This document shows, piece after piece, positions 44,055 through 46,057 of a stretch of 64,000 bases of DNA; within the stretch, counting starts at the first letter, position 1; each line of letters begins with the position of its first letter. Source of the stretch: a bacterium (GTDB lineage: Bacteria > UBA8248). The position numbers were made by a program, and so were the translations under genes. The notes below the pieces were generated by a model. That model was not told where the DNA came from, searched no databases, and worked only from the letters and a program-made list of their open reading frames with translations. Location of the stretch: contig CBDBBI010000010.1 of the NCBI GenBank assembly GCA_965202625.1, positions 2,441,142-2,505,141 on the forward strand, written 5' to 3'.

Positions 44055-44531
44055 CTATGATCTCAGTCTATCGGTCAATTTGGAGCCGCATTTGAGCCAT
44101 CGTAAGGCTTCACTTCGCCCGCGGAAACGTATTTTTCCGCTTCCATTTTTCCTCTGTGCCCTGATTTCCGATGTTCTCACGCCCTTATGGGCGACGACGG
44201 GACGAAAATGGACCACTGTATTTTCGGGAACAACCCCCTCGGCGGCGCGCGCCCCTGCTTGAAGTTGTGCAATGGCTTGGCTGACGTCCAACCGACCTTT
44301 CTTCAGTTCCAGCGGCACGACCCATAAAGAGCAGTTGCCGCTTTCGGCGATGAACAGGTAGTCGGGACGTTTCTGATTCTTGCCGAGGGGCGAACCCGGT
44401 TTGTCAAAATCGATGATCAAGCGTGGCGACGGCGCACCTTCAAGAGATACGCGGCAACCATCCCTGCGGCAATTATCTGAAAGACATTGCGGAGAAACCT
44501 CTGCCCGAACTGCATCCACGAGGCCCTTCAC
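44055..44531 (-). CDS. small protein with PD-(D/E)xK nuclease-like signature (RLIIDFD ... VVPLELKKG); predicted effector partner of upstream ATPase
   Basis: 158 aa; GTG start overlapping the ATPase stop (GTGA), i.e. translationally coupled; D43...E75-x-K77 spacing consistent with restriction-endonuclease-like fold. Family assignment is inference. Confidence 0.4.
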   Translation of the reverse strand: MKGLVDAVRAEVSPQCLSDNCRRDGCRVSLEGAPSPRLIIDFDKPGSPLGKNQKRPDYLFIAESGNCSLWVVPLELKKGRLDVSQAIAQLQAGARAAEGVVPENTVVHFRPVVAHKGVRTSEIRAQRKNGSGKIRFRGRSEALRWLKCGSKLTDRLRS

Positions 44532-46057
44532 CCGCTTTTTTCTCCAATCCGGCTGGAAATATCCGCCCAGTCATTGTGGAGCGCGGCGGCGACGTCATCA
44601 AAACCAGACGGGAAAAGCCCCGAATCATTGAGAGGGATTTCCTTCACGATAGAACCCCTTGGGCGGTTCTTTGGCTGAAATAGCCATACCCCCACCTCAT
44701 CAGGTCGTAGATCGACGTCGCCATCTTTAGGCAGGTTCGATGACTGCACGATGTTGGCGAGTTCTTCCAGCACCCACTCGCTGTGCGTCGTGAGGAGCAC
44801 CCGAACGCGCGCGCGGACGAGCGCCGCGATTTGCCGTGTGAATTCGACCTGCATGGCGGGATGCAGGTGCGATTCCGGCTCCTCAATGATCAGCACGTTG
44901 CCGGGTCTCACCACATAGCGCAGATACAGCACCACCGGCGCGAGTTCCGACACCATGGACGAGGCGTTCATCAACGGAAGGTCGGCCTTCCACGTCTCCG
45001 GCCGATAGGTGAAGCGCGGGTAGCCGGTTTCCGTTTTCTTGACGTTCACTTCTCCGCCTAGGATGAATTTTTCGATTCCCTTGTCGAGAGGATTTTGAGT
45101 TTCGCGCCCAGACTGCCCACTGTCGATCTCAATCAGTTGTTCGAGGAAGTCCGCCTGAACGCCCGAGAGCAGGGGGGTGGGGGTATCCTGATGCAGACCC
45201 GCCCTGGTGGCGCGCTCGATCAAGGCGCTTACGACCACCTGATGGGCGTGCATGACGCCTGTGCGGCTGGCGGGAAGATAGAAGGCCGGAAGATGTAGGG
45301 GGGCAAAGACCTGAGTTGCAGTGAAGTCGCTTAAATTCGATATCAGCCGCAGTGCCTTCAATTCTGGATACTCATTCTTCCATATATGCATCTTCATGCG
45401 GTAGGAACTGCCGAAGCTCCTTAATGAAAATGACCGATCATCATTCTTGAGCCGTATAGGCGTATTTTCGGGAATCTTCGTCTTGAGCGCGGGCTTTTGC
45501 GCGTGGATTCTCAGCTCTTGAACGAAAGGATCGGCATCGTCCGAGACGCCCCTTCGCAGAACGACCTGCGCGTTCCGTGCACTTCCCCCTTTACGAATCA
45601 ATTCTTTCGTCTCGTTAACGCCGAAGCACCTGCTGACTTCATTGCCGAGATTTCCGCCCAGGGCGTCAAGTCTGGTGAGTGCTGAAAGAACCCAACCTGC
45701 GATGGGATCGGGGATAAGAATGCTTTTCGCATTTGACAACGCCTCCTCGTCCCCAAACGTCCGCTTCGCCCAATCGAGAAACCCATCCAAAGTTTCCTTG
45801 GTGGGTTGATTCTCCTCGTCGTCCACAAATAGGTCGTAACCTAAGGGAAAGTGTCGGAAGCCAGGCAGACCCAGGCCATCAAGGTGACGACTGAAAAACC
45901 GGTGCAAGGCATATATCAGAATCGCCAGATAGGATTTGCCGGTGTTGCTCGGGCCCACGAACACGGTCAAAGGACGCAGAGCAATTTTCGCATCGGCAAT
46001 GGGTCCGAAATTTTTCACTTCGAGCTTGACGGAGCCTTGCACAGGCGAATCGCTCAA
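44528..46057 (-). CDS. ABC/SMC-type AAA ATPase (AAA_15/AAA_21-like N-terminal Walker A, Walker B ...LIIEEPESHLHP, H-loop TTHS, DUF3696-like C-terminal tail)
   Basis: KLEVKNFGPIADAKIALRPLTVFVGPSNTGKSYL (Walker A), long inserted middle region, VLIIEEPESHLHPAMQ (Walker B/D-loop), LLTTHS (H-loop); architecture typical of ATPase components of two-gene phage-defence systems. Confidence 0.75.
   Translation of the reverse strand: MSDSPVQGSVKLEVKNFGPIADAKIALRPLTVFVGPSNTGKSYLAILIYALHRFFSRHLDGLGLPGFRHFPLGYDLFVDDEENQPTKETLDGFLDWAKRTFGDEEALSNAKSILIPDPIAGWVLSALTRLDALGGNLGNEVSRCFGVNETKELIRKGGSARNAQVVLRRGVSDDADPFVQELRIHAQKPALKTKIPENTPIRLKNDDRSFSLRSFGSSYRMKMHIWKNEYPELKALRLISNLSDFTATQVFAPLHLPAFYLPASRTGVMHAHQVVVSALIERATRAGLHQDTPTPLLSGVQADFLEQLIEIDSGQSGRETQNPLDKGIEKFILGGEVNVKKTETGYPRFTYRPETWKADLPLMNASSMVSELAPVVLYLRYVVRPGNVLIIEEPESHLHPAMQVEFTRQIAALVRARVRVLLTTHSEWVLEELANIVQSSNLPKDGDVDLRPDEVGVWLFQPKNRPRGSIVKEIPLNDSGLFPSGFDDVAAALHNDWADISSRIGEKSG

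Follow-up and report, generated by a model that had tools for sequence, protein, structure and literature searches.

Antiphage systems that combine an ABC-type ATPase with a small nuclease of the PD-(D/E)xK type have been described more than once. PD-T4-4, identified in E. coli by Vassallo and colleagues in 2022, couples an AAA_15 ATPase to a PD-(D/E)xK nuclease (PMC9519451, PMC10952713), and WonAB, from the WASA-1 prophage of V. cholerae (Adams et al. 2025), consists of an OLD-like ABC ATPase and a 16-kDa variant PD-(D/E)xK nuclease (PMC12137116). Its authors tie WonAB to PD-T4-4 and also to an operon listed in a 2020 survey as “OLD-ABC ATPase + novel REase” (restriction endonuclease; Krishnan et al. 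2020, as presented in PMC12137116). PDC-M47 is a predicted phage defense candidate in PADLOC-DB v2 that was obtained by guilt-by-embedding (10.1101/2024.01.29.577857). Here, we analyzed a gene pair in a 64,000-nucleotide stretch of a bacterial contig (lineage UBA8248; assembly GCA_965202625.1, contig CBDBBI010000010.1, positions 2,441,142 to 2,505,141), referred to below as the window, in which all positions are counted from its first letter. Gene A (44528..46057, minus strand) encodes a 509-aa OLD-like ABC ATPase, and gene B (44055..44531, minus strand) encodes a 158-aa WonB-like mini nuclease with a restriction-endonuclease fold. We judge it likely, with a probability of roughly 0.72, that the pair is a two-gene antiphage module representing a distinct, unnamed sister family within the superfamily of OLD-like ABC ATPases with small restriction-endonuclease-fold nucleases.

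The features that characterize this superfamily are present in both genes. They are adjacent and co-oriented, with the OLD-like ABC ATPase preceding the small nuclease. The ATPase has an intact Walker A lysine, Q-loop-equivalent arginine, Walker B glutamate, and H-loop histidine, and its partner has a variant PD-(D/E)xK core with the signature (K/R)CD...ExK(G)...Q, in which the window protein carries P56 for C56. Against PADLOC-DB, the ATPase matched PD-T4-4_A (3.6e-35, 120 bits) and PDC-M47A (1.5e-28, 98 bits), in each case with partial coverage. Among 73 members of the gene B family, 46 matched PDC-M47B at E<=0.1, the best at 5.7e-7 and 2e-7, while gene B of the window reached E = 0.0099 (13.6 bits). 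Profile–profile alignment with hhalign related the gene B family to WonB with a probability of 92.6% (E 4.7e-7) and to PD-T4-4_B/PDC-M47B-type proteins with 80% (E 1.4e-5); WonB and the latter proteins aligned with 48% (E 1.8e-4), and both comparisons with PD-T4-4_B/PDC-M47B-type proteins used a set of only three sequences. The original prediction had presented the pair as undescribed and as matching no named system. Neither claim stands, given that PADLOC models assign the ATPase to PD-T4-4_A/PDC-M47A, that the small-protein family matches PDC-M47B, and that the same architecture occurs in PD-T4-4, WonAB, PDC-M47, and PDC-M29, another PADLOC candidate; a named system of like architecture, which the original prediction itself took to count against novelty, is thus largely at hand. 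What stays new appears to be a distant, unnamed sister clade that current models scarcely detect, as the E value of gene B in the window illustrates.

The Pfam matches of gene A (AAA_15, 5.7e-22; AAA_21, 1.3e-11), its invariant motifs, and the structural neighbors of its AlphaFold2 model (predicted template modeling score, pTM, 0.85) together identify it as an ABC-type ATPase. Nearest among these neighbors was PtuA, of Septu and retron systems, and Rad50 and SMC heads were also found, which bears out the ABC/SMC-type assignment made earlier. The open reading frames have the coordinates and lengths originally given (509 and 158 aa), and every motif quoted for the two proteins was located. In the ATPase, the motif VFVGPSNTGKSYLAILIYAL occupies residues 32-51, with Walker A at G35-S42 (K41), and VLIIEEPESHLHPAMQ occupies residues 388-403, where the Walker B/D-loop reads IIEEPESHLHP (E393). 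The Q-loop-equivalent arginine, R265, lies within YLPASRTG, a signature-like motif is formed by S366-S367-M368..E371, and LLTTHS at residues 421-426 contains the H-loop TTHS (H425). K41, R265, E393, and H425 are invariant across 66 homologs and correspond to K34, R182, E300, and H333 of WonA, a correspondence drawn by motif and not from a computed alignment to the V. cholerae protein. Variable inserts take up residues of about 56-256 and 266-362, and the protein carries an extension at its C terminus (about 427-509). This tail does contain GVWLF and GLFPSGFDD, but its description as DUF3696-like was not borne out, since there was no DUF3696 match and Pfam returned only AAA_15 and AAA_21. A sequence search of the PDB with the ATPase gave only a weak match to OLD (6p74), and NCBIfam gave only ABC ATPase matches, all of them sub-threshold. 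The TTG start codon is supported by five relatives that have ATG at the aligned position and by the conserved Shine-Dalgarno sequence, GAGG, that precedes it.

Gene B had no sequence match in Pfam, NCBIfam, or the PDB. Across the 73 family members, Pfam recognized no family and gave stray weak matches, including HSDR_N in two members; in gene B, a weak HSDR_N match covers the catalytic core. The AlphaFold2 model was more informative, with a mean predicted local distance difference test score (pLDDT) of 92.9 and a pTM of 0.89. It matches restriction-endonuclease-fold nucleases (type II/IIS restriction endonucleases, NucS, and Can2/Card1), and Foldseek returned weak matches to BsmI, NucS/EndoMS, and EcoO109I. 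The nuclease-like fold proposed for the small protein is supported by this confident model, which predicts an alpha-beta-beta-beta-alpha-beta core with an aspartate opening beta2 and (D/E)xK in beta3. Residues D41, D43, K44, C56, D57, E75, K77, Q89, G93, C16, C26, and C148 are invariant or nearly so in the 73 homologs. D41 and D43 fall in the loop after beta1 (LIIDFD at 38-43), P56-D57 opens beta2, E75-x-K77 lies in beta3 (VVPLELKKG at 71-79), and Q89 is in the helix that follows. Because D57 opens beta2 and E75-x-K77 lies in beta3, the canonical aspartate of the PD...(D/E)xK motif is D57. Accordingly, of the active site first proposed (D43/E75/K77), E75 and K77 hold, but D43 does not; in the model, D43 is probably an additional acidic ligand or accessory residue. 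The family consensus at the start of beta2 is C56-D57. In the window lineage, the near-invariant Cys56 is replaced by proline, which recreates a literal “PD” motif. Compensation for the lost Cys56 by Cys67 was considered and dropped, as the model places position 67 at the hairpin turn and not beside position 56.

Several observations show that both genes are real and not chance open reading frames. A word-index search found 79 homologs of the small protein, and a full profile search over clusters at 50% identity recovered 1328 representatives at E<=1e-3, of which 256 reached E<=1e-30; for the ATPase, more than 120 homologs share at least 50% identity. In all 45 related genome loci that were recovered using the small protein, the ATPase gene lies directly upstream of the small-protein gene. 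The GTG start of gene B overlaps the TGA stop of gene A as GTGA (44528..44531, minus strand), and a 4-nt NTGA overlap is kept in about 34-36 of the 45 loci, with a 1-nt overlap in three more. This arrangement implies translational coupling of A and B, as had been suggested for the window, and the recurrence of NTGA in relatives supports it.

The genomic context of the pair is consistent with defense. In eight loci, the pair is flanked upstream by hmaA (1568 bits) and downstream by hmaB (1495 bits) and is therefore embedded in Hma systems, and hmaB or a fragment of it is found beside the pair in 14 loci. Hma embedding is the configuration that was used to find HEC-01 to HEC-09 and the PDC candidates (10.1101/2024.01.29.577857). 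Defense genes recur near the pair in other settings as well: Gabija in L050, other defense-type genes in L052, an AbiJ-like gene directly adjoining it in L046, and PDC-M50 adjoining it in the window. The proposal that the pair sits in a variable defense locus holds; it lies beside a TIR-plus-transmembrane cassette (PDC-M50) in a hotspot between pdxH and a cupin gene. On the basis of homology and this context, the pair is very probably an antiphage module.

Within the clade, the position of the pair appears stable. Five species-representative metagenome-assembled genomes (MAGs; L001-L004 and L006, two of them labeled Nitrospinota) share the core context, in the order pdxH, a gene for a 94-aa HTH_3 regulator, ATPase, nuclease, and then, on the opposite strand, the cupin gene. 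The pdxH and cupin products of these MAGs are 57-68% and 72-73% identical, respectively, to those of the window, and this shared context marks the pair as a long-standing resident of the locus in the clade. The low guanine-plus-cytosine (GC) content of the pair is the same at all of the clade loci; in the window it is ~55%, versus 64-69% in flanking genes (67-69% for the bicupin gene and pdxH). Searches of phage records and IMG/VR viral contigs found no relatives of the pair, so there is no evidence for a phage-borne origin.

Members of the family in MAGs (L001-L045) come from Nitrospinota, Latescibacterota, Bryobacterales, Chloroflexota, Gemmatimonadota, Paracoccaceae, and Gammaproteobacteria. 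The bin names RHO, COS, CAR, SB0662, jk18x, and ROBB21 are ones that we take to derive from sponge microbiome studies, and the distribution suggests horizontal spread within sponge-associated communities. Some copies bear traces of rearrangement. Directly downstream of the nuclease gene, short N-terminal hmaB fragments of ~26-76 aa are present in L011 (8495-8572), L012 (8504-8728), L031 (8486-8563), and L032 (8474-8701), and it looks as if the pair in these four loci left an Hma system and carried part of hmaB along. Disrupted copies occur among L013, L026, L031, L041, and L043-L045, with the ATPase gene split or frameshifted and the small gene truncated or frameshifted; in L013 (5036-7995) and L026 (2680-7992), the ATPase gene is split by insertions of ~1.6-2.5 kb.

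When the pair in the window was compared with that of its closest relative, L046 (83% ATPase identity), the ratio of nonsynonymous to synonymous substitution rates (dN/dS) was 0.92 in gene A and 0.70 in gene B, versus 0.04 in the cupin gene next to them. Substitutions, along with two indels, gather in the ATPase inserts (about 126-250 and 301-340), where dN/dS was 1.37 versus 0.52 in the remainder of the protein; this partition was chosen post hoc. The window lineage retains every catalytic residue. We read this pattern as sensor diversification, possibly by allelic recombination, rather than decay.

From these features and the experimental work on related systems, a mechanism can be proposed. 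The two genes would be co-transcribed from a conserved promoter-like region and their translation coupled through the GTGA overlap. The ATPase would then dimerize through its ABC head and sense an infection cue through its variable inserts, a role suggested by the biology of ABC ATPases and by the concentration of substitutions in these inserts. By analogy with WonAB, for which such docking has been modeled, the nuclease may dock on the C-terminal extension of the ATPase and be active only with a catalytically competent ATPase. In that system, defense is lost when WonA is mutated in Walker A, the Q-loop-equivalent Arg, Walker B, or the H-loop, and also with WonB K71A (PMC12137116). WonB is toxic only with active WonA; genomic DNA stays intact, translation stops, and WonB is Lon-labile (PMC12137116). 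Once activated, the D57/E75/K77 site, with D43 and Q89, would cleave nucleic acid, and phage production would be halted by abortive infection. Most likely, then, the ATPase senses infection and licenses the small nuclease, which serves as the effector. An RNA substrate (tRNA or rRNA, with translation arrest) is somewhat favored from the WonAB data and from those on EcPD-T4-4, the purified complex of which cut none of 11 DNA substrates (10.1101/2025.07.10.664194).

Several considerations weigh against our interpretation. The function and mechanism proposed for the family rest on homology and context, and similarity to the named families is remote, with the ATPase at 120 bits over partial coverage where genuine members reach 864 or 767 bits and gene B at 13.6 bits where they reach 204-357 bits. 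A hidden Markov model (HMM) of WonB homologs likewise gives gene B family members only 12-25 bits. The proline at the near-invariant Cys56 position and the dN/dS values of both genes relative to the cupin gene could reflect relaxed constraint, and the window copy may be a decaying or inactive remnant. The upstream HTH regulator of relatives is missing from the window, and the disrupted copies found elsewhere point the same way. However, neither open reading frame is interrupted in the window or in L046 (667 codons for the two together), no catalytic or ATPase motif residue has been lost, the promoter-like block is conserved, the substitutions gather in inserts as would be expected of a diversifying sensor, and the proline restores the classical “PD” motif, so we consider a remnant improbable. 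A greater, though still minor, share of the probability goes to a module of the same family in which the nuclease acts like a restriction enzyme and cuts phage or host DNA directly. The closest structural neighbors of gene B are DNA endonucleases (type II/IIS restriction endonucleases, NucS, and Can2/Card1), the weak HSDR_N match covers its catalytic core, and the pair is often embedded in the methylase-containing Hma system. On the other hand, overproduction of WonB leaves genomic DNA intact and blocks translation (PMC12137116), and the purified EcPD-T4-4 complex left all tested DNA substrates uncut (10.1101/2025.07.10.664194), although both are distant relatives and provide weak evidence. 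For the antiphage module that we propose, DNA targeting is somewhat less probable than an RNA substrate.

Other explanations depart further from a defense module of known architecture. Pfam annotates AAA_21 as “putative AbiEii toxin, Type IV TA system”, and a small, potentially toxic nuclease tightly coupled to its neighbor could belong to a toxin–antitoxin or addiction module that stabilizes the island, with the ATPase neutralizing the nuclease. We find this very unlikely, as a large ATPase encoded first and Hma embedding fit sensor–effector defense, and a simple antitoxin model was rejected for WonAB, in which WonB is toxic only with active WonA (PMC12137116). That the ATPase is instead a housekeeping DNA repair protein of the SMC/RecN/Rad50 type with an accessory nuclease is suggested by the resemblance of its ABC head to Rad50 and SMC heads. 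Such a match, which the original prediction itself named as a possible objection, was not found: the best profile matches are all to defense ATPases and NCBIfam gave no housekeeping equivalog. Moreover, the ATPase lacks a coiled coil, its distribution across phyla is patchy, its GC content differs from that of flanking genes, and its neighbors are variable and include defense genes. The housekeeping explanation is effectively refuted. A categorically undescribed defense system with no named counterpart might be argued from the low score of gene B on PDC-M47B, from the family having no Pfam, NCBIfam, or PDB sequence match, and from the fact that PADLOC would probably not call the pair automatically. 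However, the same architecture and small-nuclease signature are present in PD-T4-4, WonAB, PDC-M47, and PDC-M29 (PMC12137116; PMC10952713), and the profile–profile matches already largely refute this view, to which we give very little credence. A third, mechanistically distinct branch, about equidistant from WonAB and PD-T4-4/PDC-M47, is unlikely, though it deserves more weight than full novelty. Such a branch would differ in its trigger and substrate, with a Cys-rich and possibly metal-binding nuclease and fast-evolving sensor inserts, and it would be a common Hma-embedded module, apparently of sponge symbionts (if the MAG names are, as we presume, those of sponge studies), that annotation tools miss. 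We continue to favor a sister family within the superfamily.

The region upstream of the operon (46058..46160, minus strand) was compared by aligning seven upstream regions. A block of ~44 nt (46099-46142) is nearly invariant, whereas the proteins of these loci are only 56-61% identical. It contains a promoter-like TTGAAT-17 nt-TAAGCT at about 46138-46110, and the Shine-Dalgarno sequence GAGG lies at about 46067-46064. A consensus promoter and terminator scan found nothing above shuffled expectation and the hexamers were under its threshold, so we only infer a promoter function here. The 94-aa HTH_3 regulator gene encoded just upstream of the pair in relatives (L001-L004, L006, and L008) is absent from the window, where no remnant of it was found.

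The cassette that holds the pair has recognizable boundaries. Its left boundary is repeat A (family D1; 43837..44011, plus strand), a stretch from the 3′ end of the bicupin gene, itself a core gene, that is duplicated at 46305-46479 with 98% identity. On the right is the B'A' junction (46161..46479, no strand assigned; repeat families D1-D3), in which a copy of the pdxH 3′ end (46161-46316, matching 47657-47811) is fused to the copy of the cupin 3′ end. This junction, whose fusion point recurs in contig L046, divides the cassette of the pair from the neighboring PDC-M50 cassette. Between cupin and pdxH, which are convergent core genes, two defense cassettes thus stand in tandem, and the junction copies are 98-99% identical to the real gene ends. 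L046 (1-152, 2346-2560, and 3611-3788) has the same fusion point with other cargo: an AbiJ/Abi_C gene adjoins the cupin gene and the ATPase–nuclease pair adjoins pdxH. It looks as though the cassettes are shuffled by homologous recombination of circularized A-cargo-B fragments, without an integrase.

The neighboring cassette had originally been called Thoeris-like. Its TIR protein (46526-47152, minus strand) is indeed of the ThsB type (ThsB, 3.2e-65; PDC-M50B, 5.9e-60), but there is no ThsA, and together with a small membrane protein of 127 aa (47130-47513, minus strand; PDC-M50A, 1.9e-31) it makes up the PADLOC candidate PDC-M50. The GC content of this cassette is 41.6% versus ~67% in flanking genes. 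A literature search found no paper that names PDC-M47 or PDC-M50. Beyond the cupin gene, a 219-aa protein (42313-42972, minus strand) with an R-x4-H motif (RNQVFH, 156-161), as in HEPN domains, had no match in Pfam, NCBIfam, or PADLOC. It is kept in L046 and L001-L004 (44-55% identity, with two tandem copies in L004) and may be another toxin or defense gene of the neighborhood. Farther along, the window holds a run of large paralogous ankyrin-repeat proteins in highly repetitive DNA (~34100-42450, minus strand), several apparently with N-terminal segments resembling signal peptides (e.g., 39753-42443, 896 aa). Ankyrin-repeat arrays of this kind are typical of sponge symbionts. The many long antisense open reading frames in this GC-rich stretch are probably spurious. 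Rfam and tRNA scans found nothing near the locus; a tmRNA gene (18486-18846, plus strand; tag peptide ADNELALAA) and a tRNA-Leu gene (60111-60195, plus strand) are distant from and unrelated to it.

The module represents no new type of immunity, so the picture of bacterial defense is unchanged by it. Its value lies in annotation and in comparison. No Pfam, NCBIfam, or PADLOC model exists for the small-protein family, whose members are labeled “hypothetical protein”; a family HMM would improve defense annotation in MAGs of uncultured lineages, including Nitrospinota, Latescibacterota, Bryobacterales, Chloroflexota, and Paracoccaceae, many of which appear to be sponge symbionts. The family can now be linked to the PD-T4-4/WonAB superfamily. 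Its place between the WonB and PD-T4-4_B clades helps to define the invariant nuclease core (D, CD, ExKG, and Q), and it adds sequences that could be used in finding the substrate and trigger of these systems.

Compared system by system, the pair shares its ABC ATPase sensor, in the sense of a broad clade, with Septu (PtuAB), Gabija (GajAB), PARIS (AriAB), and OLD. PtuA is the top structural neighbor of the ATPase, and AriA, GajA, and Old also gave HMM matches, those to GajA, AriA, and Old covering only the ATPase core. The effectors set these systems apart, being HNH in Septu and TOPRIM in Gabija, PARIS, and OLD. Pfam gave no TOPRIM match in either protein, and neither Pfam nor the PADLOC-DB models gave an HNH match in the pair, whose small partner has a restriction-endonuclease fold; the pair thus belongs to none of the four, and the earlier statement that the partner is neither HNH nor TOPRIM stands. 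HEC-02, an Hma-embedded ABC ATPase with a NERD nuclease (10.1101/2024.01.29.577857), is similar in combining such an ATPase with a nuclease of the PD-(D/E)xK superfamily and in its embedding, which for the pair is that between hmaA and hmaB in eight loci. However, the HEC-02A match of the ATPase is weak (1.3e-13) and the gene B family has no NERD or HEC-02B match.

WonAB resembles the pair more closely. Each is an operon with two genes, which encode an OLD-like ABC ATPase and a variant PD-(D/E)xK nuclease of ~145-170 aa, and an upstream transcription regulator in some relatives of the pair adds to the likeness. An alignment of WonB homologs, with sequences from Supplementary Table 4 of PMC12137116, has D44, C54, D55, E70, L71, K72, G73, and Q82 as invariants, so that WonB and the gene B family have the signature D...(K/R)CD...ELKG...Q in common. 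WonA and the ATPase share the “PA.R” of the Q-loop-equivalent arginine, the Walker B EEPE, and the H-loop TTHS. They differ in the signature motif (SSGQQE in WonA versus ASSMVSE here) and in their inserts, and the ATPase, at 509 aa, is longer than WonA. WonAB is on a prophage, whereas the pair is chromosomal. WonA and WonB homologs map to PDC-M29 and not to PDC-M47, and the bit scores given above for the gene B family were obtained with an HMM of 10 WonB homologs, too low for strict membership in WonAB.

PD-T4-4 is likewise an operon of two genes, for an AAA_15 ABC ATPase and a PD-(D/E)xK nuclease. Of the PADLOC models, the ATPase matches PD-T4-4_A best, and it has the signature motif of that type (AS[ST]S...L), and PD-T4-4_B/PDC-M47B-type proteins share CD...ExK...Q with the gene B family. 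The match to PD-T4-4_A is nevertheless confined to two stretches, the best at profile positions 246-378 of 460, while genuine members score 864 (L049) and 332 bits over their full length. PD-T4-4_B is also longer (~190-210 aa versus 158 aa), and none of the 73 gene B family members matched its model at E<=0.1, so strict membership in PD-T4-4 does not hold for gene B. PDC-M47 is the only PADLOC family that both genes match, although PDC-M47B proteins are likewise longer (~185-200 aa). Genuine reference pairs came from plasmid matches to the ATPase, all distant, and gene B itself had no match in the plasmid search. For the reference pair from an E. albertii plasmid, the scores were 864 bits (PD-T4-4_A) and 357 bits (PD-T4-4_B); for that from an Annamia dubia plasmid (L048), they were 767 bits (PDC-M47A) and 204.5 bits (PDC-M47B), where the window pair reached 98 and 13.6. 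A third pair, on a Bernardetia plasmid (L047; 1883-2293 and 2638-4647) and preceded by a SpoIIAA-like/STAS protein, is intermediate: its ATPase scores 332 and 293 bits on the PD-T4-4 and PDC-M47 models, and its small protein matches both families, at 1e-12 and 7e-10. This pair indicates a gradual transition between the two PADLOC families. The low scores of the window pair on the named families, together with the shared domain architecture, gene order, and catalytic signature, make it a member of the superfamily that seems to belong to no named family. By these sequence comparisons, it appears to be an unnamed sister clade of WonAB and PD-T4-4/PDC-M47.

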